Positions 14-45,898 of a DNA stretch of 46,583 bases are shown here, one piece after another; the stretch's first letter is position 1; every line of letters begins with the position of its first letter. The stretch comes from a virus. The stretch lies in UHGV virus genome UHGV-1364951; one strand, written 5' to 3'. The notes beneath the pieces are model-generated. The model was not told where the DNA came from. It did not search any database and saw nothing but the letters and a program-made list of their open reading frames with translations. The translations under genes and the position numbers were made by a program.

Positions 14-502
14 ATGCACTGGAGCGCGCAAATGGACTTTAAAACGCAAATACTCACGGTGATAGAGCGCTGTGGTGGCGCAACCAATGCCATGATACGC
101 AAGCAGACTGGCATGACAAACCGAGCCAGTGTTACTGGCTATCTTATTGAACTGGAGGGCATGGGATTTATTATTAAAGAGGAAAGCGTCAGCTATGGCA
201 GGCGCTGCTTTAAGTATTTACTCAATCCCGATAATACTGCGCTTGATTTGGCAATTCAGACGTATCTTGAGGCGAATCCTGGGCGAAAAAGCAAGCAGAT
301 AGCAGAGGCTGTCGGTGTCAACTACACCATCCTCAAGGCGCGCATGCGCTATCTGGCAAGCATTGGTCAGGTTGATCGCGAAATGCTCCCAGGTGGAGCA
401 TGGAAATATTACTGGCAGGAGATCATCCCATTTGGCATGAGCCGTGACAGGATGATGTTTGAAAAGTTGCTTGCTGGGGCGCGCCAGTCATGTGGGCGGT
501 AA
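14..502 (+). CDS. winged-helix DNA-binding protein (putative transcription regulator)
   Basis: 162 aa ORF; central region has wHTH-like pattern (…ATNAMIRKQTGMTNRASVTGYLIELEGMGFI…); first gene of a rightward block. Confidence 0.45.
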   Translation: MHWSAQMDFKTQILTVIERCGGATNAMIRKQTGMTNRASVTGYLIELEGMGFIIKEESVSYGRRCFKYLLNPDNTALDLAIQTYLEANPGRKSKQIAEAVGVNYTILKARMRYLASIGQVDREMLPGGAWKYYWQEIIPFGMSRDRMMFEKLLAGARQSCGR

Positions 503-4467: not shown

Positions 4468-4851
4468 ATGATGACCAGTAAAGGCATTGAGCAAGAGATT
4501 CAGGACAAAGGCAGTGAAGCGCCACGAGTAACCAGACAACACATTGAAGACGTCATTGTCAGTGAGCACTACTTTACGGGTTATGATGGCATTGGGGGGG
4601 GTGGTGCATGGGCAAAATACAAGTCAGCACTTGACTTGCTTTCGAGCCATGAATCATTAAAACTAATCACATTCTGCATCTTGGTGTTGAAAAACGGATT
4701 CACCGTGACCGGGGAAAGCGCCTGCGCCAGCCCCGCTAATTTCGATGCCGAGATTGGTCGCAAGATTGCCAGAGAGAATGCGGTAAATAAAATCTGGATA
4801 CTGGAGGGATACCTCCTCAAGCAGAACCTTTCGGAGGAAAAAAATGGCTAA
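4468..4851 (+). CDS. Gp49-like (N4 gp49 / Sf6 gp66 family-like) protein
   Basis: 127 aa ORF with its own SD; family assignment is from sequence recall only; contains a G8 homopolymer at 4594-4601. Confidence 0.4.
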   Translation: MMTSKGIEQEIQDKGSEAPRVTRQHIEDVIVSEHYFTGYDGIGGGGAWAKYKSALDLLSSHESLKLITFCILVLKNGFTVTGESACASPANFDAEIGRKIARENAVNKIWILEGYLLKQNLSEEKNG

Positions 4852-5038
4852 ATATGAAGTAATCGCCAGCGGAATCTTCGTCAAGGATAAAGACGGTCGT
4901 CTGCGCGAGCTTGCTATTGGCGATGTCATTGACGAATCCACTCCGCACATTGAGTCAAAACTTCGCCCGGTTAGTGAGAAAATTCTGGAAGTTGCAACTC
5001 CGCAAGAATCGCAGCCAAAGGCGAAGAAAACCAAGTAA
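4844..5038 (+). CDS. hypothetical protein (64 aa)
   Basis: ATGA-overlapped with the previous gene; followed by a terminator. Confidence 0.4.
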   Translation: MAKYEVIASGIFVKDKDGRLRELAIGDVIDESTPHIESKLRPVSEKILEVATPQESQPKAKKTK

Positions 5039-5043
5039 AATAA

Positions 5044-5068
5044 ACCCGCAAACAAGCGGGTTTTTTAT
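5044..5068 (+). terminator. rho-independent terminator
   Basis: acccgcaaacaagcgggtttttt. Confidence 0.6.
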
Positions 5069-5930: not shown

Positions 5931-6467
5931 CTACAGACGCATCGGCATAACAACAATCTTCGCATTCTCGCCAGATGGCGCACTAAGGCAGCAAACTGCG
6001 GCATTTGTATTTCCATTCAATTCAAACTTAACGCCACAGAATTTAGGATTAAACAGCTTCGCGGCTTTCTCGGCATCCACAAGATAGCCAGAATTGAAGC
6101 CAATTTCCTCTGCTGCTTTAGTTTCCTTTGGTATCGCGCGGTCAATATCAGGGAATCTACCATCAATCTCTTCGCAGATACCAGCGCCCCCCATCACGCC
6201 AGCTTCATCATGATACGTTGCAATTTTCGACTTAGTATCAATGATGGCGTAGTCATAGCGTTTTGTTGGTGACTTGCCAATCTTGATAATCACGTTTTCT
6301 GTCAGCTTATTGTCATGAGCGCCTCCAATGAATGCGCGATGACCGTCAGTTGACGCAATGCGACCATCAGGCATGAAGCAGATACCGTTCAGGTAATACC
6401 GCACATCGTTGCGAGCCTGAAATATTAATGCTGATTCAAGTAATAGTTTGCTGATTTTTAGTTTCAT
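5931..6467 (-). CDS. truncated DNA polymerase III beta sliding-clamp (DnaN) homologue
   Basis: 178 aa. It aligns to E. coli beta domain II plus the C-terminal tail: VRYYLNGICF…ASTDGHRAF… ~ YYLNGMLFE…ATDGHRLAV; IDGRFPDIDRAIPK ~ VDGRFPDYRRVLPK; EIGFNSGYLVD ~ EIGFNVSYVLD; KIVVMPMRL ~ AYVVMPMRL. ATG at 6467 (track gives a GTG at 6470). Confidence 0.6.
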   Translation of the reverse strand: MKLKISKLLLESALIFQARNDVRYYLNGICFMPDGRIASTDGHRAFIGGAHDNKLTENVIIKIGKSPTKRYDYAIIDTKSKIATYHDEAGVMGGAGICEEIDGRFPDIDRAIPKETKAAEEIGFNSGYLVDAEKAAKLFNPKFCGVKFELNGNTNAAVCCLSAPSGENAKIVVMPMRL

Positions 6468-6640
6468 CACTTCACCTTAATCATATGCTGTTTTGCAACC
6501 TTCAGGCATTCTTCAAAAATGCCACCCTTCTTTGCGCTCTGATTGCGCCTGTAATACTGAATAGCCGCATCAATTGCCATCTGGTCGATTTCAGGTAGTT
6601 TGGTACGAAGTTGTTTTTCGATGAATTGTTCTGGTGTCAT
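6467..6640 (-). CDS. hypothetical protein (57 aa)
   Basis: MTPEQFIEKQLRTKLPEIDQMAIDAAIQYYRRNQSAKKGGIFEECLKVAKQHMIKVK; ATGA / TGATG overlaps with both neighbours; below the track cutoff. Confidence 0.35.
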   Translation of the reverse strand: MTPEQFIEKQLRTKLPEIDQMAIDAAIQYYRRNQSAKKGGIFEECLKVAKQHMIKVK

Positions 6641-6858
6641 GGGTGTTTCGTTACCTTTTTTATTTTATCTCCAGATAAATAACAGGACGTATATCTTTTA
6701 CTACCTGCTGTTATCCTGCACACAACAAAGCTACCAATCTTTTTTACGGATTCAACAGTAGCCAGTCTATGACTTCCTGGTTGTATCTTGTCTCCGGGCA
6801 TCAATCCATCAACTCTAACTTTTATAATTGATATGCCATCATCTGTTGTAGTCATCAC
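6637..6858 (-). CDS. hypothetical protein (73 aa)
   Basis: track ORF, coupled to the ParB-like gene upstream. Confidence 0.4.
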   Translation of the reverse strand: MMTTTDDGISIIKVRVDGLMPGDKIQPGSHRLATVESVKKIGSFVVCRITAGSKRYTSCYLSGDKIKKVTKHP

Positions 6859-7670
6859 ATCTTCTCCAGAATTGCCATAACCTCGTGAATATCAGCGACA
6901 GGAATCTGGATAAATTCCTCATCCTCTGCCATCACATGACCAGCAGGGAGAATCACGTGGTCTGCTTGCTTCAATAACTCAATCAGGCGGTCTACTGGCT
7001 TAATCTTTTTCGACTTCAGTATCTTCGCTGTGACCTTGTCCTTACCTTGTGCTTTGGCTTCTTCTACTGCCTCGTCGATAACTTTAACCGCATCATCGCC
7101 ATGCTCGCGCGTCACCGCTACGGCATTTGCATAGCTGATTTGTCCTGCACTGATACGCGCTTTTACTTCCGCCGGAACATCACCCAGCGACAGGTGCATT
7201 TGCACGTCAGATACTGAGCGACCTACCTTTTTGGCGATTTCTTCATTCGTCCAGCCAAAGCCTTTCAGTCGCGTGTAAGCCTTTGCACGTTCAAACGGAT
7301 CAAGTTGCTTACCCTGACTGGATGACACCATGAAGGCGATTTTGTCTGCTTCGTCGCCAGTGAAATCCTTACACTCAATACGAACGATTGGCGCACCACG
7401 CTCAATGGCACGCAATGCGCCAAGATAACGATGCTGGCCGTCAAGAATCTTGATGCGCTTTCCGTCGGCATCAGGAATAACAGTTAACGCCGGTATTGGC
7501 TGGCCTGATTCCCAGCACTGTGCGAAGTATTCAACGTGCTGCTCATCGGCTTCGCGGATGTTGTACCCCGGCTCAAGATAAAGCTGGTCTACAGGAACAA
7601 GGTAAGTCTTGTTTACGGTAATTCCATCACGGGTTTCTTTATTTGCATATCTCTGACTTAAAGATGCCAT
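6855..7670 (-). CDS. ParB-like nuclease-domain (ParB/Srx N-terminal domain) protein
   Basis: Motif ILDGQHRYLGAL (ParB-box GxxR); ATG at 7670 preceded by SD gaggaagg (track extends to a TTG at 7706); C-terminal half is K/E-rich and helical. Confidence 0.6.
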   Translation of the reverse strand: MASLSQRYANKETRDGITVNKTYLVPVDQLYLEPGYNIREADEQHVEYFAQCWESGQPIPALTVIPDADGKRIKILDGQHRYLGALRAIERGAPIVRIECKDFTGDEADKIAFMVSSSQGKQLDPFERAKAYTRLKGFGWTNEEIAKKVGRSVSDVQMHLSLGDVPAEVKARISAGQISYANAVAVTREHGDDAVKVIDEAVEEAKAQGKDKVTAKILKSKKIKPVDRLIELLKQADHVILPAGHVMAEDEEFIQIPVADIHEVMAILEKM

Positions 7671-7677
7671 ACCTTCC

Positions 7678-7794
7678 TCACTTTGATAAACAGATTGCGC
7701 TGGCAATGGCGAATCCGATAACGATTAACGCAAGTTTGATTTTGAAGTCGCGCCACGCTTTCAGGTCTTCTTTGCGGATTTCGTGGCGGATCAT
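7678..7794 (-). CDS. small membrane peptide (38 aa)
   Basis: MIRHEIRKEDLKAWRDFKIKLALIVIGFAIASAICLSK; ATGA overlap with the upstream 115-aa gene. Confidence 0.3.
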   Translation of the reverse strand: MIRHEIRKEDLKAWRDFKIKLALIVIGFAIASAICLSK

Positions 7795-8138
7795 TGGGAT
7801 TCTCCGAGTGCTTTGGCGATTGCGGCGCGCGCTTTGTCATATGGGCACATGCATGTAAAACCATTGTGGCCGCATGACTTATTACCACCTGTTTGCTCGG
7901 CCATTAATAATTGAAGTGCTTCCAGCAATTCCGGTGCGGCGGCGATGAGCTGTGCATTAGCCATTAGATAATCCATCTGCTCATCATCCGTGGACAGAGA
8001 CACTACGCATTCGGCGAATCTGTAGTGAGGAATCTCACCGTCATGTTCAAAATCAAAGATTGCCATTCCATCCTTGATTCTCATGCTCCATGGGCCGGGA
8101 TACCCTTTAAAACCTTTCATATTCATCACCTCTAACAT
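7791..8138 (-). CDS. hypothetical protein (115 aa), first gene of leftward operon
   Basis: track ORF; SD gaggtga upstream; conserved promoter immediately upstream. Confidence 0.45.
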   Translation of the reverse strand: MLEVMNMKGFKGYPGPWSMRIKDGMAIFDFEHDGEIPHYRFAECVVSLSTDDEQMDYLMANAQLIAAAPELLEALQLLMAEQTGGNKSCGHNGFTCMCPYDKARAAIAKALGESQ

Positions 8139-8160
8139 TTATTGTTGTTTCTACGTCATC

Positions 8161-8189
8161 ACTATAGCGACACCCTCAATCTACGTCAA
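8161..8189 (-). promoter_or_regulatory. sigma70-like promoter TTGACGtagattg-N10-TATAGT (phage consensus)
   Basis: minus strand reads TTGACGTAGATTGAGGGTGTCGCTATAGT, with a 17-bp spacer. Confidence 0.5.
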
Positions 8190-8350
8190 CACTTTATGAT
8201 AAAATTAAAACAACAACACTCACCCCGCGCTGTTCCGTCCTGAAAAACGTAAGGCGGCGAAATTGGATATGGCAATCGGCGTTATCGTCATAGCGTTTTC
8301 GCTGGTTCAGGTGTGCAGATGCTGGAAGTTCATCATTCGGAGAATAATTA

Positions 8351-10271: not shown

Positions 10272-10350
10272 TGGTTACCGCGACAGGATTCGAACCTGTA
10301 ATCATCCGATTATGAGTCGGGTGCTTTAACCAGTTAAGCTAAACGGGAGT
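10272..10350 (-). tRNA. tRNA-like element, anticodon CAU (Met/Ile2-type), aberrant acceptor stem
   Basis: Minus strand shows D-arm GCTT/AAGC, anticodon stem-loop CCCGA-CTCATAA-TCGGA, T-arm ACAGG-TTCGAAT-CCTGT and 3' CGCGGTA-A-CCA. The 5' strand (…CTCCCGTTTA) cannot pair with CGCGGTA as read, so this may be a pseudo or chimeric tRNA. Confidence 0.35.
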
Positions 10351-10351
10351 T

Positions 10352-10429
10352 TGGTGCACCATACTGGATTCGAACCAGTGACCTACGGATTAGAAGTCCG
10401 TTGCTACTATCCTGCTGAGCTAATGGTGC
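10352..10429 (-). tRNA. tRNA-Arg (anticodon UCU)
   Basis: Minus strand: acceptor GCACCAT/ATGGTGC, anticodon arm ACGGA-CTTCTAA-TCCGT, T-arm ACTGG-TTCGAAT-CCAGT, encoded CCA. Confidence 0.65.
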
Positions 10430-10477
10430 GTTGCGTTGTTGATTCGAATCTACACCACCAATCAAAACCTGTCAACA

Positions 10478-11278: not shown

Positions 11279-11306
11279 AAAACCCCCGAAAGGGGGTTTA
11301 TTTTTT
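11279..11306. terminator. strong intrinsic terminator (bidirectional)
   Basis: aaacccccgaaagggggtttatttttt. Confidence 0.65.
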
Positions 11307-12399: not shown

Positions 12400-12428
12400 A
12401 ATCACCTTATGCTTTCAATCTACGTCAG
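12400..12428 (-). promoter_or_regulatory. consensus-type promoter cTGACGtagattg-N10-GTGATT for leftward island
   Basis: The + strand reads CAATCTACGTCAG at 12416-12428; the -10 match is weak. Confidence 0.35.
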
Positions 12429-25327: not shown

Positions 25328-25371
25328 CCATCACCTCTCTTTATTGTTAAATCAATCTACATCAAACTACG

Positions 25372-25788
25372 TCACTCATCAAGCCCAAAATAGAATAACG
25401 TCGCTCTTTTTAGCTCCTCAAGGCCATAAGCAATGGCACCAAAGTGACCCTCTGCAATGGCGCACTCAAGAACCTCAATCTGTGATGGTGATACCTTTGA
25501 TTTTGCCCTGTCACGCCTCTTCAGCTCAATCAGGCCGCATTTATGATTAATGCCGTGAGTTAGTATCACATTGTCGCTTACTCCGCTCCTGACGCCCATT
25601 TTTCGGCGTTTTTCGATGAATTGCGGCCCGCTCTTTGTTCCAGTTTCGTTAGACACATGAAACCACAGGACTTCAGGAAATCTGTATTGCATCCACAGAC
25701 CATAGGCCATCTGGTCAGATTCCTCCCTTGGACACTCCCCGCGATAACCGCTATCAAATACCCATATTCCACTATCAAGCTGCTTCAA
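25372..25788 (-). CDS. VRR-NUC-like nuclease
   Basis: 138 aa; …HGINHKCGLIELKRRD… matches the VRR-NUC core. Confidence 0.4.
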   Translation of the reverse strand: MKQLDSGIWVFDSGYRGECPREESDQMAYGLWMQYRFPEVLWFHVSNETGTKSGPQFIEKRRKMGVRSGVSDNVILTHGINHKCGLIELKRRDRAKSKVSPSQIEVLECAIAEGHFGAIAYGLEELKRATLFYFGLDE

Positions 25789-28464: not shown

Positions 28465-28536
28465 TGCAAGTAACGATTGATTGTTTCTTGTGTAAAGATT
28501 ACAATGAATCTACATCATAGTCAACTGGAAGAAATT

Positions 28537-29421
28537 ATGCGATACGACTGGAAGGATATAGAGCCTTTAATGGTAGGAAACTGGCAGGCTGCCATCATGT
28601 CGATAGTTAATGTCGACATGAGAATTTTCAATGGCAAGCATCAGCCATGCCCGAGCTGTGGCGGCAATGATCGGTTCAGATTTGATGACCACCTCGACTA
28701 CAAAGGTGACGGCGGCGCCATCTGCAACCAGTGCGGAAACGGCAGCGGAATCACCTGGCTAATGAAGCTGTCAGGAATGACGTTTCCAGAGTCAATGGAG
28801 GCACTGGCCGGATTTCTGAACATGCACCCACGCGAAAAACTTGAGGCGATTAGAAAGCAACTTCCGAAGGTCAACCATGCTTCTGACTACCTGACAGAGG
28901 CAGAAGTGGCGGCCATCATGGGAAAGGCAGGAGGCGACACTATAACTGGTAAAACTGGCGAACTGGTGGCGATACCACTCTATATGGCTGGAACTATGAC
29001 TCCGTGCAACGTGGCTTTTCTGGCAGACGATGAAAGTGTGTCATTTCGCGCGGGTTTTAGCCATGAATACACTCGCGGAAGACTTACGCGAGGTGCAGTT
29101 ACACCCATCGGCGATAAGACTGAATGGACATACCTGGTTGCGGATTACTTAGATGCCTGGCGAGCGCATCAGCTTACCGGTGCTCATGTCTGGTGTTGCT
29201 GGTCGCCGGAAAACATGTGGGAAGTTGTGCGCAATGTGAGCGATGAACAGCGAGCTAAACTTCGCTGCATCATTAATAATAATTTCGACGAGGTATGCGC
29301 CGCCGAGAATGCTGGCCTGCCAATACTGATTACTGATGATGGTCATGATATCCGTTACAGCGGCGCCATCAGAAAAAGACTATATAAACCAGAAGAGCTA
29401 TTTGAAGCACTAAAAAAATAA
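28537..29421 (+). CDS. putative DNA primase (zinc-binding + Toprim-like)
   Basis: ATG at 28537 (track ORF starts at 28477); CPSCGG…CNQCG zinc motif; C-terminal ILITDDGHD; strong terminator follows. Confidence 0.45.
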   Translation: MRYDWKDIEPLMVGNWQAAIMSIVNVDMRIFNGKHQPCPSCGGNDRFRFDDHLDYKGDGGAICNQCGNGSGITWLMKLSGMTFPESMEALAGFLNMHPREKLEAIRKQLPKVNHASDYLTEAEVAAIMGKAGGDTITGKTGELVAIPLYMAGTMTPCNVAFLADDESVSFRAGFSHEYTRGRLTRGAVTPIGDKTEWTYLVADYLDAWRAHQLTGAHVWCCWSPENMWEVVRNVSDEQRAKLRCIINNNFDEVCAAENAGLPILITDDGHDIRYSGAIRKRLYKPEELFEALKK

Positions 29422-29445
29422 ACCCTCCTGATGGAGGGTTTTTGT
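29421..29445. terminator. bidirectional intrinsic terminator
   Basis: aaccctcctgatggagggttttt. Confidence 0.65.
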
Positions 29446-29636
29446 TATCGTATCATCAGTCTATTTATATCAACACTTGCATGAAGATGGCGATGCCAGT
29501 AACTATCAATAACATGATAGTTTGATATTAACCAGCAGCCGTGCAATTTACTCCAGAAAAACCAAACACTCCAACCATAAGGCCTAAAATGATATGCGCC
29601 TTCTGACCTTACTAAGTAACCTTTTATCTTCATCAT
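29445..29636 (-). CDS. hypothetical Trp-rich protein (63 aa)
   Basis: ATGA-coupled to the upstream ATPase gene; ends at the terminator. Confidence 0.3.
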   Translation of the reverse strand: MMKIKGYLVRSEGAYHFRPYGWSVWFFWSKLHGCWLISNYHVIDSYWHRHLHASVDINRLMIR

Positions 29637-31186
29637 TTAAGCCTTGGATTAAGGTAAACAGTGTTATTAAGGAATACGCAATATCCATCTTCTTCAAGAG
29701 ACGGCAAAACGTTTGACTTGAGTCTGTCATAAATGTGCGGTATGCCTTTGAATGGTCTAACGTTTTTTAGTGAATCATACAGCCATTTCACCGTGACATT
29801 TGTCTTTCCTTTTTGCGCAGCTGTGCGCAATTTTTCAGCAACCACATCAATTTCTGATTTCTCGCCAGCGTATCCATTTGACTCAACGGCATCGGTAAAT
29901 GTTTTTGTTAGTGCATCATAAACGCTTATGGCGCGACTTATATGCTCCTCACCAATAATTTTTGATCGACGCCCGCCATCGCACCAGTTTTCAGCGGCAT
30001 GGAATATTGCCGAAAGCCTGATTATCTGTTTGTCAGCCTTACCCATGGCACCACGAAGCAAAACGTGATCCCATTTGCCACCTGGCAGGAAATTCTTTTC
30101 CCACTGGTTTCGTAAAAGCCCAATCATACGCTGCGATTCTTTAGCGAGGGAGAAAACAACCTTCTCAGAAGCCACAAGGTTATGCACAAATCTGGCATAT
30201 TCTGCCTTTAGTTCTTTAGGCATTGGCTTACTTACCGGGCAATCATTTTCCACATCCCAATGCTCACGATAACCAAGCATTGACTGCTCACGAAGCATCA
30301 GGAATCGCTCTGACAATCCATTACCTCTGTCACCAGCAGACAGAATGGCGTCAATACTTTCATCCTGTGCAATAACGCTGATGTTACCAAGCACATAGCC
30401 AGATGAAACACCACGACCAACGCGAGCTGAGCCAACAAAACCGCCATCCCAGCCTTTAAGGATGACCTCGGCGTTAGACTTGCCACCATCTTTGCCATAT
30501 GAAAGGCCAAGACAGGTATTTAAAACGCTTGCCTCATCACTTATGAGGTTGAAAAAACCACCCTCATGAATTGCCTGGTGCTGCACTGCTTCTGGTGTCG
30601 CATCGGTTAACGGGTAGGTGATGGTGTAAAGACTTTCCAGTTTTTCCTTCTCTTTCGCGATATCATCTCCAATGATGGCTTTAGCATTCTGATTCGTCGC
30701 CTCTTTGTAGGCCTTCATAAGGTCTTCAATGCGAATGTTTATCTTTACAATTTCCTTCTCCATCTTTTTTGACAGGTTGTCATACTCAATTTTTATCGGG
30801 TTCATGTGCATTGAGTTGATAGCTGTCTTGCCAGCTGATGGCGGCTGCGACGTCACCACGTACAAGGAAACAGGCAATTCAGAACCGTAGTATTCAACGC
30901 TAAAATTTCGCGTCATGGCACTTGCTACGCATCCCAGAAGGTGCATGAATGATGTGCTAACGGGGAATTGCACAGCCCTCGCAGCTGCAACTGAGTAGCG
31001 CGTTATCAGGTCTTTCCTGTTGTCGCTGGTAAGCTCTATCTCTGAGTATGTTACATCCTTCTCCTGCCCTTCCTTGATTTCAGGCCACATGTTGTGGCTT
31101 GGTGTCATGCCATGATGAATGGCTACGCGCGCCGCAGAGGTATGCGCCTCTCTTGCCTGATTGAAGATTTCCTGTGCTGTAATCAT
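29633..31186 (-). CDS. Walker-A ATPase, putative replication initiator/helicase loader (DUF3987-like)
   Basis: 517 aa; Walker A PPSAGKT; located beside the origin-like region and the primase and helicase genes. Confidence 0.4.
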   Translation of the reverse strand: MITAQEIFNQAREAHTSAARVAIHHGMTPSHNMWPEIKEGQEKDVTYSEIELTSDNRKDLITRYSVAAARAVQFPVSTSFMHLLGCVASAMTRNFSVEYYGSELPVSLYVVTSQPPSAGKTAINSMHMNPIKIEYDNLSKKMEKEIVKINIRIEDLMKAYKEATNQNAKAIIGDDIAKEKEKLESLYTITYPLTDATPEAVQHQAIHEGGFFNLISDEASVLNTCLGLSYGKDGGKSNAEVILKGWDGGFVGSARVGRGVSSGYVLGNISVIAQDESIDAILSAGDRGNGLSERFLMLREQSMLGYREHWDVENDCPVSKPMPKELKAEYARFVHNLVASEKVVFSLAKESQRMIGLLRNQWEKNFLPGGKWDHVLLRGAMGKADKQIIRLSAIFHAAENWCDGGRRSKIIGEEHISRAISVYDALTKTFTDAVESNGYAGEKSEIDVVAEKLRTAAQKGKTNVTVKWLYDSLKNVRPFKGIPHIYDRLKSNVLPSLEEDGYCVFLNNTVYLNPRLK

Positions 31187-31444
31187 TTAAACCTCATACT
31201 CGGTTGCAAATGATTCATGTGGGTTTTCAGATAGCCATTGCTTAGCTTTAAGCACGGCTGCGTTTGCCTCTTCTGCCGTTTCAAACCTGCCAAGCTCATA
31301 CCTGAGTCTGTTAACAACAATCCTCGCCCTGAAATATCCAGAGTGCTTATGGAAGTCAACCCCTCTAAACCCGGTAGATGATGGCCTTCCGCCACCGGAT
31401 GATGAAAGTCTTTTTTTCTTAAGTAGCTTTCCATGTGCAGACAT
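31187..31444 (-). CDS. AP2-domain DNA-binding protein
   Basis: 85 aa; GFRGV…GYFRARI…LGRFETAEEA motif typical of AP2/ERF-type domains in phages; stop abuts the ATPase start. Confidence 0.5.
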   Translation of the reverse strand: MSAHGKLLKKKRLSSSGGGRPSSTGFRGVDFHKHSGYFRARIVVNRLRYELGRFETAEEANAAVLKAKQWLSENPHESFATEYEV

Positions 31445-31520
31445 AATTTACCCTCGCTCAAGAATTTTAACCATGATACCCCATAAATTACCCTTCGTAA
31501 AGCGACCACAAACAAACTCC

Positions 31521-31548
31521 GGTTAGGGTTAACTGGGTTAACTGTGGG
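31521..31548. repeat. tandem iterons GGGTTAACT x2 (plus related GGGTTA/GGGTAT copies up to 31710)
   Basis: ggttaGGGTTAACTGGGTTAACTgtgggg. Confidence 0.45.
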
Positions 31549-31810
31549 GAGGCCCATCTTCCCCAATATTTTTTACTGTAAGTGTATGTATAATAATAAT
31601 AATAGTAGTAGTTGGGTTAATTGGGTATATTATTATTCATATTATAGATTTTATTTTAACAATAAATTAACAAATGAATTATATGGGTTATATATAAGGG
31701 GATATGGGTGAAGACATACCCTGCTGCCCCTAAATTGTTAAATTACAATATTAACATTAACTTACCGCGAAAAATCTGGGGCAATTAACCTGCCCCAGCA
31801 CCTTACCCAC

Positions 31811-31827
31811 GGGGGTAAAATTTACCC
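31811..31827. promoter_or_regulatory. perfect 17-bp palindrome GGGGTAAA-A-TTTACCCC (candidate operator)
   Basis: read directly from sequence; a second hairpin ctggggca-attaacc-tgccccag lies at ~31776-31798. Confidence 0.35.
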
Positions 31828-31853
31828 CAATCGGATTTATTTTCACCATCATA

Positions 31854-31882
31854 TTGACGTAGATTGGGAGCCATCGTATAGT
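31854..31882 (+). promoter_or_regulatory. sigma70-like promoter TTGACGtagattg-N10-TATAGT
   Basis: TTGACG, a 17-bp spacer, then TATAGT, 32 bp upstream of the ATG at 31914. Confidence 0.55.
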
Positions 31883-31913: not shown

Positions 31914-32120
31914 ATGACGAAGCTCTATAAAGCAGTAGATAAAATGGATGGCAGAGTATCTGCATTTCTTGTAAGGGATAATGGTGATGTTTGTAAAAGT
32001 TTTTGGTACATGGATGATGAGGGTGAAGTTGATGCTGCAAAGCATACCGGTAGCCTACAGACGCCATGCAGAAATGGAATGGACGACGCCATCAACCCTG
32101 TACTCATAGCGGAGTGGTAA
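31914..32120 (+). CDS. hypothetical early protein (68 aa)
   Basis: SD gaggtgatgaagaATG. Confidence 0.4.
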   Translation: MTKLYKAVDKMDGRVSAFLVRDNGDVCKSFWYMDDEGEVDAAKHTGSLQTPCRNGMDDAINPVLIAEW

Positions 32121-32122
32121 TC

Positions 32123-32308
32123 ATGACCAAAGCAATCTACACGCGCACTAAACTGGAACCAGAAATGGGCGCAGTGAAAGCGCAAAACTTTATGATGGCG
32201 CAGGCAATGCATGCATACAGCAACGGTAAGCGAGTCTGTCGCGTTTTTAGCGGAGAAGGCAAGCAGAGAGTGCTTGAGCAGGTTATCGTGTCATCTGGTG
32301 GAAACTAA
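32123..32308 (+). CDS. hypothetical protein (61 aa)
   Basis: ATG at 32123, in frame with track ORF 32066..32308. Confidence 0.35.
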   Translation: MTKAIYTRTKLEPEMGAVKAQNFMMAQAMHAYSNGKRVCRVFSGEGKQRVLEQVIVSSGGN

Positions 32309-32323
32309 ACCGGTTTAGCAACG

Positions 32324-32602
32324 ATGAATAAACTACTGGCAGTGGTTTTACTGGTTATCGCTAACGCAGCAATCGCTGAGACTATATGGGTTACGAAGTA
32401 TGCATTGACCCGTGGCATTCAGAAGTACGAAAGCGCACAGCTATTTGCTGATGGTCAGGTGGCTGTAGTTGGCGATGTTTACTTTAAACGTGGTGAATAC
32501 TGGCTTGATGAGCAACAGGCAAAAGAGCATGCAGAAACTTTGCGGCAACGCCGTGTATCTGCATTGATGCGTGAGCTTGAGCGCTTGCAGGCGGTTAAGT
32601 GA
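32324..32602 (+). CDS. small secreted protein (signal peptide)
   Basis: MNKLLAVVLLVIANAAIA-ETIW…, a cleavable signal followed by a charged helical domain. Confidence 0.45.
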   Translation: MNKLLAVVLLVIANAAIAETIWVTKYALTRGIQKYESAQLFADGQVAVVGDVYFKRGEYWLDEQQAKEHAETLRQRRVSALMRELERLQAVK

Positions 32603-32608
32603 GGATTT

Positions 32609-33058
32609 ATGGATATCGAAATTAAAGAAGTTCAGGAAATTATTAAAAACCTTGAGAGTGGCGGTGAACTCTCAATAAAAGAGGAAAAATACCTCAATGT
32701 TGCAAAGCTGTGCGTGCAGCTGGCTGCGGAGAATGTGGCGCTGAAATTGGCAATACCTGAGCCGAGAAATGTTGAATTCGATAACGACAGCATGGATGAC
32801 GTATCGCTGGCTGAAGATATTGGATTTAACGACGCAATTGGTCAGATGAAAATCAACATTAGTAAAACCCCCGTCACCGATCGCATCGTAGCCGGGATTA
32901 AGGCTGATGGGGTGGAAGAGTTTGCAGCGATGACAGAAAAAGTTGCTGATGAAGAGGAGTTTTACGATCACGGGGAGTATTCTGAGACCCTGAAATACAC
33001 GGCTAAACAAGCAAGATTATTCGCCCAGCAGCTGCGCGAGGGGGCTAATCATGACTGA
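32609..33058 (+). CDS. hypothetical acidic protein (149 aa)
   Basis: track ORF. Confidence 0.4.
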   Translation: MDIEIKEVQEIIKNLESGGELSIKEEKYLNVAKLCVQLAAENVALKLAIPEPRNVEFDNDSMDDVSLAEDIGFNDAIGQMKINISKTPVTDRIVAGIKADGVEEFAAMTEKVADEEEFYDHGEYSETLKYTAKQARLFAQQLREGANHD

Positions 33059-33470
33059 TATCACCGAACTGGCGCAGAGCCTGAAAGCGGCAGCAGAGAA
33101 TGCCGGAATAGAGCAATGGGTTAACAATCGCGGAGAGGTAAACACAGCCGATTATGAGGTGGATGGTGGCATGTATATCGACCACATTTGCGACTGTGAA
33201 ATCGTCGGAACAGAAAGCCCGTGTGCAGAGTTCATTGCCCTGGCTAACCCTGCCAACGTTCTTGCGCTGGTAGAGGCGCTGGAGAAGGCGCAGCGGAGCA
33301 TCGCCGAGCTGGAGTCACGCTTAAACTCTGCTGACAAATTGCAGGACAGTGCATTCCGTAGTGGATTGCAACACGGCTTTAGTCTCGGACAGACAGATGA
33401 CCAAAAAGGTTATGAGCAGAGCATGGCCGCTTATAGCTCCCACGCTGGCATCAAGGTGGAGGCTGAGTAG
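33051..33470 (+). CDS. Ead/Ea22-like protein
   Basis: …ALANPANVLALVEALEKAQ… resembles lambdoid Ea22/EaD-family signatures (sequence recall only). Confidence 0.35.
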   Translation: MTDITELAQSLKAAAENAGIEQWVNNRGEVNTADYEVDGGMYIDHICDCEIVGTESPCAEFIALANPANVLALVEALEKAQRSIAELESRLNSADKLQDSAFRSGLQHGFSLGQTDDQKGYEQSMAAYSSHAGIKVEAE

Positions 33471-33788
33471 ATGAAACCTGCAAATTTTGCCCCTGTGTAC
33501 TGCGCACTTTATCCGGCACTGGCAGAGATAGCCCGCAAGCACGGTTACGCAATGGCTATTCACGGAACGATGGCGCGTGACTTTGACCTTATTTGTATCC
33601 CGTGGGTCGAGACTCCATCAAAACCTGAAGAAGTCGTGGCAGAAATCACCGCAACATATGCGACTACAGATATCACTAACCCTGGCTACAAGCCTCACGG
33701 TCGCCTGGCCTATTCCGTCTGCTTTGGGTTCGGTGAGTTCTTTGCTGACATGTCGTTTATGCCTGTTATCGAAGGAGCCAACCAATGA
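33471..33788 (+). CDS. hypothetical protein (105 aa)
   Basis: track ORF; start overlaps the previous stop. Confidence 0.4.
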   Translation: MKPANFAPVYCALYPALAEIARKHGYAMAIHGTMARDFDLICIPWVETPSKPEEVVAEITATYATTDITNPGYKPHGRLAYSVCFGFGEFFADMSFMPVIEGANQ

Positions 33789-34366
33789 CCAAATCAACCA
33801 TAACCAGAGCGCGCATGCAGGAAATGCTAGAGTGGTGTGAGGTCTTCCGCCGCCACCCTCGCCTAGATGACATTGCCGAGGCTATACGCATGGCGCTGGC
33901 CGCAATGGACAGCAGAGAGTCGGTTGAACTGCCGCTTGACTACCTGCAGGGACACAAAGACGGTCTGGAATGGGCCGCCCAACTGGCAGAAGCCAATCAA
34001 CCTGAAACAGGAGACTGGCTGTACGATAACCCTATCGAGCTGGCAAAAGCAATTCGCAAAGGTCCAGATATGCCGCCAGCGAAGATGGCGGCGCACAGCG
34101 AGCCGGTGGCTTGGGTTGTGCAGAATAAAAATATTGGAGATGTTGAGATAGATGAACCTTTTGCAAAGGCAACAAATCCAAAATATTGGACTGACTCATT
34201 CCCTGTGTATCGCCACGCGCAGCAGCAGGTAGTGCCTGATGAGCTTAAAGAGGCTGCGGCTGACTTTCTCACAGTTCTTGACGAGAACCCGAAACAGTTG
34301 GTTCCGATAAATAGAGATTCAGCCGTAGTTCGCGCCCTACGCGCCGCCATGAAGGAGGTGAAGTGA
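33785..34366 (+). CDS. hypothetical protein (193 aa)
   Basis: track ORF; ATGA-coupled. Confidence 0.45.
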   Translation: MTKSTITRARMQEMLEWCEVFRRHPRLDDIAEAIRMALAAMDSRESVELPLDYLQGHKDGLEWAAQLAEANQPETGDWLYDNPIELAKAIRKGPDMPPAKMAAHSEPVAWVVQNKNIGDVEIDEPFAKATNPKYWTDSFPVYRHAQQQVVPDELKEAAADFLTVLDENPKQLVPINRDSAVVRALRAAMKEVK

Positions 34367-34659
34367 TGGAATGGTATTTCTCCACCGGACTTTTTTTGTG
34401 GATTTTTGCTCAAATAACAAGAGCAGATGAAACAACTGGCATTAAGAATAACATTCTGTGCTTGCTGCTCTTCATTGTGCTGTGGCCAAAGATCATTATG
34501 ACCATTGCTTACAAATTTATCGAGCAAAAGTGGTTGATGTCTAAGTCATCAGCAGAGGTAAAAACCATGAAACCCTACATAATCCGCATGATTATTGCTG
34601 TAGCCTGCGTTGCATTCTGGATTGCTGTTGCGTTATCCGCCTGGTTTATCATGAGGTGA
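34363..34659 (+). CDS. small membrane protein (2 TM)
   Basis: 98 aa with two hydrophobic helices. Confidence 0.4.
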   Translation: MMEWYFSTGLFLWIFAQITRADETTGIKNNILCLLLFIVLWPKIIMTIAYKFIEQKWLMSKSSAEVKTMKPYIIRMIIAVACVAFWIAVALSAWFIMR

Positions 34660-34662
34660 TTT

Positions 34663-34821
34663 ATGTTGTGGAGCAATATTCAGGCTGCATGCGAAGAGGC
34701 TGATTTTCTGTATGAGGAGACTGGTAAGCATCATGCCGTCATTCAGGTTGGCAGCATGATGATGGTGGTTGAGCATAACAGCATGCTTCGGCACATGTAC
34801 TCAACGACGAGGTATCAGTGA
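34663..34821 (+). CDS. hypothetical protein (52 aa)
   Basis: MLWSNIQAACEEADFLYEETGKHHAVIQVGSMMMVVEHNSMLRHMYSTTRYQ; fills a gap; stop overlaps the next start. Confidence 0.3.
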   Translation: MLWSNIQAACEEADFLYEETGKHHAVIQVGSMMMVVEHNSMLRHMYSTTRYQ

Positions 34822-35015
34822 TGCCGCAAAAATCAAAGCAGGAGGTGTGGCAGGCGGCGCAGGTTGAAGGAGTCGACCACTTCATATCAGCAACCGCAAA
34901 AGCCTTTCCTGATGCGATTGAGGTGGTTCACGTTCAAAGCAATAATTGTAATGTTTGGTGTTATGCGAAAACTAATGTACAATCATCTCATCAATCATCA
35001 CCCACCACCCTTTAA
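34821..35015 (+). CDS. hypothetical protein (64 aa)
   Basis: ATG at 34821 (track gives a GTG at 34818); terminator follows. Confidence 0.35.
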   Translation: MPQKSKQEVWQAAQVEGVDHFISATAKAFPDAIEVVHVQSNNCNVWCYAKTNVQSSHQSSPTTL

Positions 35016-35039
35016 CCCGCTTCGGCGGGTTCTTTTTTA
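35013..35039 (+). terminator. rho-independent terminator
   Basis: aacccgcttcggcgggttctttttt. Confidence 0.65.
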
Positions 35040-35095
35040 TCTACGCCATGTGGTAAGATATGTCCTATGTGAGTTACTCAAAGGACACATATAAA

Positions 35096-37407: not shown

Positions 37408-37433
37408 AAGATTTCTCCGAGAGGTTTCATTTT

Positions 37434-37462
37434 AATCTACGCCATGCTAGAATCTACGTCAA
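37434..37462 (-). promoter_or_regulatory. consensus promoter TTGACGtagattc-N10-TAGATT
   Basis: The + strand carries gaatctacgtcaag (37449-37462) and taatctacgcca (37431-37442). Confidence 0.4.
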
Positions 37463-37495
37463 GACGCATTGACATAACTACATCACCGGGGCATC

Positions 37496-37735
37496 ATGAA
37501 GGCATACTCATATTTTTCGTGGGAGCAGAAGGAAAAAATATACTCACTCGCAAGAGCTGGTGTATCAGATGCAGCTCTGTGCGAAAGGTATGATGTGGAT
37601 GAGGCTATTCTTCTGCGCATGTATGATGAGGTGCTGTGTGAGTTGCAGCGTCGCCGTGGTTATAGTGGCCTAAAGACGATTAATGATTTCTTCCGGAATG
37701 TTGAGTTAAATAACGATGAGGGTGGTGATTTATGA
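37496..37735 (+). CDS. hypothetical protein (79 aa)
   Basis: track ORF; first gene of the inserted rightward cluster. Confidence 0.4.
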   Translation: MKAYSYFSWEQKEKIYSLARAGVSDAALCERYDVDEAILLRMYDEVLCELQRRRGYSGLKTINDFFRNVELNNDEGGDL

Positions 37736-42674: not shown

Positions 42675-42702
42675 CTTGAATCCCCTGTGTTTGTGTAACT
42701 AC

Positions 42703-42731
42703 ATCATCGCCTACGATTCAATCTACGTCAA
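42703..42731 (-). promoter_or_regulatory. consensus promoter TTGACGtagattg-N10-GATGAT
   Basis: The + strand reads CAATCTACGTCAA at 42719-42731. Confidence 0.45.
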
Positions 42732-42736
42732 TAGGA

Positions 42737-42748
42737 TTATGATAAAAT
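42737..42748 (+). promoter_or_regulatory. conserved TTATGATAAAAT element upstream of endolysin gene (candidate late promoter -10)
   Basis: identical dodecamer at ~8194-8205 and a variant aTAATGATAAAAg at ~45875-45888. Confidence 0.35.
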
Positions 42749-42772
42749 AATCTGCATCACCGGAGGTAAAAA

Positions 42773-45380: not shown

Positions 45381-45602
45381 TTATCGCCAGTTGCTCTCGT
45401 CTGCAATTTCTTTAATGAAAAACGCTAAATCACTCAGTTGCTCCATCTGAATCCTGCTAATCACTCTTCCGTATCTGTATTTGTTGCCATTCGCTACCCA
45501 CTCCCACACTAACGTTAATGAGCAGTTAGATGTATCGAATTGATAAAAGAATGCCTTATCTTCCTTCCAGCATGAATCAAAAATAGTGCTGTCTATAATC
45601 AT
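45381..45602 (-). CDS. hypothetical protein (73 aa)
   Basis: track ORF. Confidence 0.4.
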   Translation of the reverse strand: MIIDSTIFDSCWKEDKAFFYQFDTSNCSLTLVWEWVANGNKYRYGRVISRIQMEQLSDLAFFIKEIADESNWR

Positions 45603-45802
45603 CGCTCACCTCTCAATGTAACCTTGTTTTTCTCATCTACGCTGAAATGCTCACGCACAAACGCATACATTTCTTCAGCGCCCCATTCCCGCATTGCTAC
45701 ATAGCAGTGCGCGTAATATCTGACATCTCGCAGGCTTAACGGCTGGCGCTTAGCGATAATCTCAGTCAATACTTCCAGTGGTTCTTTGCGTTGTCTCGCC
45801 AT
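45599..45802 (-). CDS. hypothetical protein (67 aa), first gene of leftward operon
   Basis: track ORF; consensus promoter motif upstream. Confidence 0.4.
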   Translation of the reverse strand: MARQRKEPLEVLTEIIAKRQPLSLRDVRYYAHCYVAMREWGAEEMYAFVREHFSVDEKNKVTLRGER

Positions 45803-45898
45803 TGTCGCTCTCCTGTGAAAATCATCTTGACGAATCTACGTCAATTAGTCAATACTCTGTGTTGTAGATTGTACCATAATGATAAAAGGTGGTGTGGA

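Follow-up and report, generated by a model that had tools for sequence, protein, structure and literature searches.

A recurrent asymmetric motif in the early promoter regions of a Roufvirus-like siphophage and its relatives

Introduction

The 13-mer TTGACGTAGATTG recurs upstream of gene modules in the genome of a Roufvirus-like siphophage, which raises the question of what reads it: the RNA polymerase of the host, as part of its promoters, or a separate protein that binds there. A preliminary description made from the sequence had offered two answers, an extended -35/spacer element for a modified host RNA polymerase, or an operator for a phage regulator that controls all early leftward operons together. 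The window analysed here is the whole stretch of DNA, 46.6 kb in length (46,583 nucleotides), and represents a nearly complete Roufvirus-like siphophage genome. Phages of the Roufvirus and Skatevirus types have been isolated in large numbers and are therapeutic candidates against Klebsiella, Salmonella and E. coli. The papers on them that were consulted contain nothing on the transcription programme, two genome papers on relatives do not mention promoters, and the motif was undescribed in the literature searched on Roufvirus, on Vi-typing phage E1 and on the motif string itself.

The source genome and its relatives

Megablast showed 87-94% identity over most of the window with Aeromonas phage pIS4-A (genus Roufvirus), Vibrio phage pYD38-A and many Klebsiella phages. 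The window is a virulent siphophage of Roufvirus-like type; published relatives are called lytic, and the annotations of four relatives contain neither an integrase nor a CI-like gene. Head, tail, packaging and lysis genes form long rightward operons, and these are broken up by short leftward modules, which encode RusA, a ParB/KorB-like protein, exonuclease VIII, a recombinase, SSB, helicases, two tRNAs and small ORFs. A search of Rfam returned nothing beyond the two tRNAs.

For comparison, seven relatives from the Roufvirus/Skatevirus group were taken from about 200 related records in a phage collection, making eight genomes together with the window. These were the Roufvirus-like pIS4-A and Klebsiella phage VLCpiS13a, the Skatevirus members Salmonella phages BS5 and SEzh_1, and in addition Escherichia phage Lewi, Salmonella phage PSH-1 (an unverified record) and Citrobacter phage K1M. 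Protein identity to the window is 35-90%, and between Roufvirus-like and Skatevirus-like genomes it is 35-80%.

The motif and its distribution

The exact 13-mer is present three times in the window, at 8177-8189 (-), 31854-31866 (+) and 42719-42731 (-), with none expected from shuffled sequences. When one mismatch was allowed, seven sites were found in the window against 0.04 expected, the additional four being at 12416 (-), 25353 (-), 37450 (-) and 45832 (-), and the 10-mer TGAYGTAGAT with up to one mismatch was observed 24 times against 4.9 expected. A weight matrix (PWM) was made from ten motif sites, and matches scoring at least 13 were taken as strong; the window contained 13 of these, against about one in Markov simulations. 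Since the matrix was derived from the sites themselves, it is circular as a statistic and serves as a detector, and the mismatch counts alone are independent statistics. Twelve of the 13 strong matches are intergenic, in a window of which 6.7% is intergenic DNA (binomial p about 1e-13), so that the equal frequency inside coding regions which would have spoken against a regulatory motif was not seen. Besides the strong copies there are at least five weaker satellites, and in total 17-18 copies are spread across nine intergenic regions, which precede, on either strand, early-type modules made up of DNA metabolism genes, tRNAs and small ORFs.

In the motif a -35-like hexamer, TTGAYG, runs straight into a -10-like hexamer, TAGATT. 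TGRYGTAGATT forms its core, and a T at position 1 and a C at position 5 occur chiefly where the first hexamer also serves as a -35. By inspection the 13-mer has no internal dyad symmetry and is non-palindromic. Neighbouring copies are irregularly spaced, at 10, 17, 24 or 29-30 bp, or are inverted. Base frequencies for each class of copy were computed among matches selected with the PWM, and being circular they were not counted as evidence of constraint.

A 14-mer scan of IMG/VR (2.9 million contigs) recovered mainly Roufvirus-like contigs together with chance matches. The same scan turned up an unrelated E. coli element that holds an inverted pair of the motif, AAATCTACATCAA-N7-TTGACGTAGATTG. 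We also observed that TTATGATAAAA adjoins three motif copies; taken as a late-promoter consensus it has three good sites only, which come without a -35 or TGn.

Position of the motif relative to sigma-70 promoters

Judged by consensus matches, the copies are associated with promoters of sigma-70 type, that is, with -35-like and -10-like hexamers 16-18 bp apart and a gene downstream in the same orientation. Registers were obtained with a consensus promoter scanner and by separate scoring, the offset being the start of the motif relative to the start of the -35. Over six genomes the offsets clustered at 0 (22 cases), 16-18 (36), 6-8 (16), 31-32 (7) and 39-41 (5), an analysis that is partly circular because the promoter finder detects the motif's own hexamers. 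An extended -35/spacer element would keep a constant distance from the -35 and -10, and no such constancy was found. That part of the preliminary description therefore fails, because the same 11-13-mer occupies different positions relative to the local promoter.

At 8177, 31854 and 42719 the motif supplies the -35. The copy at 31854 forms, over 31854-31882 (+), the promoter TTGACG-N17-TATAGT, in which TTGACGTAGATTG is followed after N10 by TATAGT; it is the promoter of a rightward cluster of small early-type genes at 31914-35015, and its Skatevirus orthologue is a two-copy version, TTGACGTAGAATA-N4-CTGATGTAGATTG. The copy at 8177-8189 (-) likewise forms TTGACG-N17-TATAGT (8189 to 8161), and the identical spacing noted earlier for these two best examples was borne out. 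This promoter serves a leftward module (8138 to 5931) encoding a 115-aa ORF, the ParB/KorB-like protein, 73-aa and 57-aa ORFs and RusA. A satellite, ATGACGTAGAAAC, follows directly after its -10 at 8147-8159 (-), at about +1, and opens a 5'UTR that is conserved across genera. The third copy, at 42719-42731 (-), is the -35 of TTGACG-N17-GATGAT (42731 to 42703). It belongs to a three-copy cluster at 42695-42760 (-), with GTGATGCAGATTA at 42748-42760 and ATGATGTAGTTAC at 42695-42707, which lies between a leftward ORF (42674 to 42384) and the rightward lysis cassette (42773).

At 10446, 12416, 25353 and 37433 the TAGATT of the motif serves instead as the -10, with TTGACA, TTGACG or TTGATG 17-18 bp upstream. 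These copies cannot be -35 elements, because the start codon is only about 26 nt downstream. The copy at 10446-10458 (-), GTGGTGTAGATTC, belongs to TTGACA-N17-TAGATT (10475 to 10447), the predicted promoter of the tRNA-Arg/tRNA-Met pair (10429 to 10272), directly upstream of which it lies. That at 12416-12428 (-), CTGACGTAGATTG, belongs to TTGACA-N18-TAGATT (12446 to 12417), which serves the leftward module 12255 to 11298 (NinX-like and others); here the ATG is only 25 nt past the orthologous copy in pIS4-A, which again precludes a -35. At 25353-25375 (-) two copies lie 10 bp apart, GTGACGTAGTTTG (25363-25375) and TTGATGTAGATTG (25353-25365), and the proximal TAGATT is the -10 of TTGATG-N17-TAGATT (25382 to 25354), upstream of exonuclease VIII, the recombinase and SSB. 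The cluster at 37433-37486 (-) has three copies, GTGATGTAGTTAT at 37474-37486, TTGACGTAGATTC at 37450-37462 and ATGGCGTAGATTA at 37433-37445. Its promoter TTGACG-N17-TAGATT (37462 to 37434) takes the -35 from the middle copy and the -10 from the proximal one, and the cluster lies between a leftward 96-aa ORF (37407 to 37117) and a rightward gene at 37496 for a 79-aa protein, here called p79.

In a further class, at 28506 and 45832, the motif lies wholly in the spacer and neither of its hexamers is used by the promoter. The copy at 28506-28518 (-), ATGATGTAGATTC, is within the spacer of TTGACT-N17-TAATCT (28524 to 28496), the promoter of a leftward module (28464 to 25372) with an HNH-like ORF and a helicase; it also follows closely after the -10 of a rightward promoter, predicted at 28477-28505, that precedes the primase gene. 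The region 45827-45871 contains face-to-face divergent promoters, with copies on both strands. Here the copy at 45832-45844 (-), TTGACGTAGATTC, is common to two spacers, those of the leftward TTGACT-N17-CAAGAT (45852 to 45824) and the rightward TTGACG-N18-AATACT (45827-45856), and a second copy at 45859-45871 (+), GTGTTGTAGATTG, is at about +1 of the rightward promoter. The copies at 8147 and 45859 thus both lie near +1.

The site coordinates given in the preliminary description all hold, and its degenerate copies at 25363, 37433 and 28506 proved real. The one at 35037-35049 (-), ATGGCGTAGATAA, is weak (PWM 10.5) and abuts a terminator at 35014-35031, and we regard it as doubtful. The statement that almost every leftward operon is preceded by the motif was slightly overstated, since the leftward operon at 29445-31566 has no copy upstream. 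Copies that had been missed are those at 10446-10458 (-), 45859-45871 (+), 8147-8159, 37474-37486, 42695-42707, 42748-42760 and 4872-4884 (-). The last of these, TTGACGAAGATTC, is antisense within the ORF at 4844-5038 and is the sole strong match in a coding region. It is found in Roufvirus relatives only, and a C to T difference there in VLCpiS13a is non-synonymous; the match is probably fortuitous and was left out of the regulon count.

Conservation across relatives

PWM matches numbered 13-21 per genome in the eight genomes, against about 1.8 by chance, and they were located at orthologous promoters. In alignments of six promoter regions the motif was an invariant island between diverging flanks. 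At the 8189 promoter, which precedes the ParB operon, TTGACGTAGATTG is invariant in seven genomes while the rest of the spacer diverges: the 13-mer, the TATAG and the +1 copy are fixed and other spacer bases change. The +1 copy reads TGAYGTAGAAAC in all seven genomes, with C/T variation solely at the degenerate position of the motif. In the divergent region next to the lysis cassette, TTGACGTAGATTGA is the sole long conserved block, and both of its flanks have been rewritten between lineages. Copies of the spacer class (28506, 45832) are invariant across genera except at motif positions 1, 5 and 13. Bases beyond the hexamers are constrained at sites that coincide with sigma-70-type promoters, in agreement with the preliminary description.

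Copies outside the -35 and -10 are also kept. Downstream of the lysis-divergent promoter there is a second copy, which is direct in Roufvirus (ATGATGTAGTTAC) and inverted in Skatevirus (TTGATGTAGATAC); the TAGATA of TTGATGTAGATAC would make a poor -10. In Lewi and PSH-1 one copy is located 8-11 nt before an ATG. Since RNA polymerase does not read the registers and orientations in which these copies have been kept, they point to a separate trans-acting reader. In silico, the motif outlines an early regulon of nine promoter regions that is conserved in all eight genomes examined.

Operator or promoter element

We consider that the motif may well be an asymmetric operator with the core TGRYGTAGATT, at which a repressor acting in trans would keep RNA polymerase out, a reading which we hold to be about as probable as all the others together. 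The motif itself, its statistics, its association with promoters, its variable position and its conservation across genera are direct observations from the genomes compared; that a protein binds it, that binding represses, and which protein does so, we infer. Of the two answers offered earlier, an operator for a common regulator is the better supported, but the proposed tie to leftward operons is not, since the copies at 31854 (+) and 45859 (+) drive rightward early operons. What the sites have in common is a temporal class rather than a leftward orientation: they serve early-type genes (exonuclease, SSB, helicase, RusA, tRNAs, small ORFs), and late operons carry the motif only where they abut an early-type module.

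The motif would then be a discrete cis-regulatory unit embedded in the host-sigma-70-type promoters of the early modules. A sequence-specific binder, probably phage-encoded and probably a monomer or a flexible oligomer, would occupy the one to four copies of each promoter region and exclude RNA polymerase, so that all early modules would be repressed or auto-limited together. Repression is expected because all copies lie between about -35 and +25 of a promoter, within the polymerase footprint. Such a common shut-off could halt convergent transcription at the onset of late expression, a rationale suggested by the genome layout, in which small leftward early modules alternate with the long rightward operons for structure and lysis and face them head-on. 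It offers a testable account of how a virulent phage manages early modules that are antisense in late operons. For engineering, the motif marks portable early promoters and the bases in them to leave unchanged.

Several points run counter to an operator. Good -35 and -10 hexamers are present within the motif, and RNA polymerase alone explains part of its conservation; the irregular spacing of copies is unusual among cooperative repressors; and the best conserved DNA-binding candidate, the protein with tandem winged helices described below, is only 35-44% identical between genera though the motif is identical. In addition, what speaks for a global early repressor in a phage without lysogeny genes is its rationale.

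The main alternative is that the motif is nothing other than the -35 (TTGACG) and the -10 (TAGATT) that this lineage prefers, standing next to each other, with the host sigma-70 polymerase as sole reader. The copies would then stem from shared ancestry, from duplicated promoter cassettes and from tandem promoters that overlap. A plausible sigma-70 promoter accompanies every strong copy, and 58 of 100 matches use a motif hexamer as -35 or -10 at the correct 16-18-bp spacing. Promoters with two copies offset by 17 bp use the -35 of the first copy and the -10 of the second. The early promoters of T4 have a shared consensus which reaches beyond the E. coli hexamers, and this too is in keeping with a promoter element. 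All of this accounts for the offsets 0 and 17. It leaves unexplained the copies that are inverted or that lie in the spacer, at +1 or in the 5'UTR, and copies in these positions, which sigma-70 does not read, are conserved across genera. The unused halves of the motif are more degenerate (TAGAATA and TGGATAC; GTGATG and GTGGTG), as this alternative would have it, but are clearly non-random. Moreover, TAGATT is a sub-optimal -10 and yet is fixed, and the TG at -17/-16 and G at -13 do not match an extended -10, which has TGn at -15/-14. We therefore think it rather unlikely that promoter function is the whole explanation.

Candidate binding proteins

If the operator reading is correct, TGRYGTAGATT (duplex TGACGTAGATTG) would be a precise bait for finding the regulator. 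Among the proteins encoded in the window, the winged-helix protein named in the preliminary description survives as a candidate, with the correction that its start is probably at 32, as indicated by homologues, and not at 14. This 'MarR-like' protein (32-502 (+), phrog_1687, 156 aa) has two winged-helix domains in tandem in its AlphaFold model (pLDDT 78), and Foldseek matched it, at low TM scores, to proteins that have tandem winged helices. All eight genomes have it, with a frameshift in the unverified PSH-1 record, and its gene is downstream of the motif-bearing rightward promoter in 45827-45871. The putative recognition helix of the second domain retains Y, K, R and R between genera. On this model, a two-domain monomer would suit an asymmetric 11-13-bp site.

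A second candidate is p79 (37496-37735 (+)), a conserved protein whose gene always adjoins the densest motif cluster. AlphaFold predicts a confident three-helix N-terminal bundle, and the homologue in Citrobacter phage K1M was annotated 'sigma-70 region 4' by its depositor. Searches with Foldseek and against PDB sequences and Pfam gave no significant match, and an HTH or sigma-4-like identity is only a lead. The third candidate, p67 (45599-45802 (-)), is conserved and 67 aa long, and its gene comes first in the leftward operon at the face-to-face promoters; scans of Pfam and PHROG found no family for it. The same scans of about 25 small early proteins detected none of the Cro, CI, Arc or MotA-type families.

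The AP2 protein (31187-31444) had also been proposed as the regulator. It has homologues in only 24 phage records, with no match in BS5, SEzh_1 or VLCpiS13a, all of which keep the motif, and it was rejected.

A bolder version of the operator reading, which we judge to be decidedly unlikely, would have the motif mimic a promoter, with a -35 fused to a -10 so as to be read by a single phage protein of two modules, for global early shut-off in a virulent phage; this protein would be the tandem winged-helix protein (32-502) or a sigma-region-4-like p79. If true, one monomeric repressor would vie with sigma-70 for one hexamer or the other of any early promoter and would resolve the head-on conflict between leftward early modules and rightward late transcription.

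A modified polymerase, the first suggestion of the preliminary description, could also be the reader, through appropriation of the MotA/AsiA kind or through a sigma-region-4-like protein (e.g. p79) that directs or boosts transcription, the motif then being an activator site. The motif is specific to a phage lineage and characterises one temporal class of promoters, some genes have a copy ahead of them but no -35 that can be recognised (45859 (+); 10573 in L078), and the K1M annotation of the p79 homologue points the same way. We find this improbable nevertheless, because activator boxes stand at a fixed distance from the -10 and the register here runs from the -35 to the 5'UTR, and because the near-consensus hexamers of most promoters need no activator. 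In addition, among the roughly 25 proteins scanned there was no Pfam or PHROG match to the sigma, AsiA or MotA families, from which remote homologues could escape, and p79 itself has no significant sequence or fold match.

An equally improbable reader is a DNA-binding protein of the Enterobacteriaceae, exploited by these phages for early timing or a boost. In its favour, phages of Klebsiella, Salmonella, Escherichia and Citrobacter share the motif in identical form whereas their candidate DNA-binding proteins differ, and the inverted pair occurs in the unrelated E. coli element; the latter may have come up by chance, given a 14-mer query and 2.9 million contigs. We know of no enterobacterial regulator with such a recognition sequence, and the literature search for the motif string (GACGTAGATT) returned matches to unrelated PCR primers only.

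That the copies are parS-type or other DNA-transaction sites of the phage ParB/KorB-like protein, for segregation, condensation or KorB-style global repression, is very unlikely: its ORF at 6855-7706 has HTH_ParB (Pfam E 2.6e-11) and KorB (26.2 bits, above the cut-off) domains, and its identity of about 90% across genera parallels the invariance of the motif, but sites of this family are palindromes whereas the motif is asymmetric. As a binder the protein is disfavoured, because VLCpiS13a lacks the gene (only a 50-aa C-terminal remnant is left) yet retains every motif site unchanged, although the deletion may be recent and the sites not yet eroded.

Comparison with known systems

Short operators reused at many promoters are known from other replicons. 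In plasmid RK2 (IncP), the KorA/KorB regulon coordinates the expression of the entire genome through one short operator that recurs at about a dozen promoters, and KorB represses a dozen dispersed promoters; the likeness extends to a ParB/KorB-family protein being encoded here. Unlike the motif, the KorA and KorB operators are palindromic, and the ParB-like gene is dispensable for retention of the motif in VLCpiS13a; neither a palindrome nor dependence on a ParB-family protein, as expected of parS or OB sites, was found. The MotA boxes of T4 and PHIRE-type phage consensuses are similar in being lineage-specific motifs that mark a temporal class of host-polymerase promoters and replace or overlap the -35. 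MotA boxes differ in being fixed at about -30 and in needing AsiA and MotA, whereas the motif has a variable register and good -35 hexamers of its own: we found neither a fixed distance of about -30 nor a missing -35 replaced by the motif, most promoters having a TTGACN -35.

Closer parallels are found in two temperate phages. The 'stoperators' of mycobacteriophage L5 are 13-bp asymmetric sites (GGTGGMTGTCAAG), about 30 per genome, that are bound by gp71, the immunity repressor. Like them, the motif is asymmetric and 13 bp long, and its many copies are scattered over short intergenic regions, mostly co-oriented with transcription, with a -35-like hexamer inside and with copies overlapping the promoter or downstream of it. 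Many L5 sites, however, are inside operons and block elongation, whereas almost all copies here are within promoter footprints, and lysogeny genes are lacking here; judged by the annotations of four relatives, there is no temperate immunity context (integrase or lysogeny module). The C1 operators of phage P1 are 17-bp asymmetric sites (ATTGCTCTAATAAATTT), with more than 14 dispersed in the genome. They resemble the motif in being asymmetric, in being dispersed at many promoters singly or paired in either orientation, and in overlapping the hexamers, and they are read by a monomer. The P1 sites differ in belonging to the immunity system of a temperate phage, whose repressor and antirepressors are known; they show no similarity in sequence to the motif, and no C1 homologue was detected here.

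Several features of operators of the P1 C1 and L5 gp71 kind were nevertheless found for the motif, namely a non-palindromic site of 11-17 bp at many dispersed promoters, overlap with the polymerase footprint, variable registers and either orientation, as in the change of the second copy from direct to inverted. By analogy, and with no homology of sequence or protein, the motif resembles most closely in function the P1 C1 and L5 gp71 operators and the operator reuse of RK2, without belonging to those systems. We regard it as a previously undescribed operator or promoter signature that marks the early regulon in the Roufvirus/Skatevirus group.

The ParB operon and modular organisation

The promoter driving the leftward module that carries the ParB/KorB-like gene is followed by a 5'UTR (ACGTAGAAACAAYAATAAATGTTAGAGGTGA; window 8090-8160 and its orthologues) which showed no variation in seven genomes belonging to two genera. 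The first gene after this invariant leader varies, being a 115-aa ORF in the window and an anti-restriction gene in the Skatevirus BS5. The region resembles either a cassette in which promoter and leader move together or an element acting at the RNA level; no match for the 5'UTR was obtained in Rfam. Within the module, RusA, a 57-aa ORF and the ParB/KorB-like protein (window 5931-7706, minus strand) share 87-96% identity with their Skatevirus homologues, as against 50-85% for the structural proteins, and this difference in sequence identity points to a recent exchange of the segment. In the Roufvirus-like Klebsiella phage VLCpiS13a, the ParB-like gene is deleted.

Strong bidirectional terminator hairpins were predicted at 5042-5063, 11280-11299 and 29420-29441, where leftward modules meet rightward operons. 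Each leftward module is thus self-contained, from promoter through terminator. The tRNA-Met(CAT)/tRNA-Arg(TCT) pair (window 10272-10429, minus strand) is predicted to have its own leftward promoter of the motif type, TTGACA-N17-TAGATT. This promoter is retained in Skatevirus, with no tRNA annotated at that place.

Other sequence elements

At 45827-45844, the sequence TTGACGTAGATTCGTCAA forms a perfect 6-bp inverted repeat surrounding TAGATT, so that one copy of the motif is flanked by the -35 hexamers of two face-to-face promoters; the same interval was also called as a hairpin by the terminator scanner. A second element, TTATGATAAAA, was observed on the plus strand at 8194-8204, 42737-42747 and 45877-45887 (two exact copies and one with a single mismatch), each time 4-6 bp away from a motif copy and oriented toward the genes read rightward. 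Possible roles are a -10 for divergent promoters that serve the lysis cassette and a membrane protein on the rightward side, or an UP-like element. Neither a -35 nor a TGn was found at these three sites. The Skatevirus lysis promoter differs in having an extended -10 (TGgTAGAAT).

Divergent operons are also separated by a highly AT-rich non-coding stretch of approximately 290 bp (31567-31853). It contains triplet runs (ataataataataatagtagtag), two hairpins are present at this region (31545-31565 and 31776-31798), and the leftward helicase operon (29445-31566) begins there without a motif copy. This gap may serve as an origin or have some other control function.

Outside these phages, an unrelated E. 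coli element (L005 6959-6991, L019 8501-8533, L064 471-503), which also occurs in E. coli plasmid and chromosome records, has an inverted motif pair, AAATCTACATCAA-N7-TTGACGTAGATTG, directly 3' of its serine-recombinase gene. The 11.8-kb L019 fragment, the sole one compared, contains no proteins resembling those of the window. The pair may be a coincidence or may hint at a wider binder family. As for one of the candidate binders, a frameshift in the unverified record of Salmonella phage PSH-1 (L124 10051-10546) divides the tandem winged-helix gene into two ORFs, each encoding one winged-helix domain; the gene is either naturally split in this phage or was misread in sequencing.
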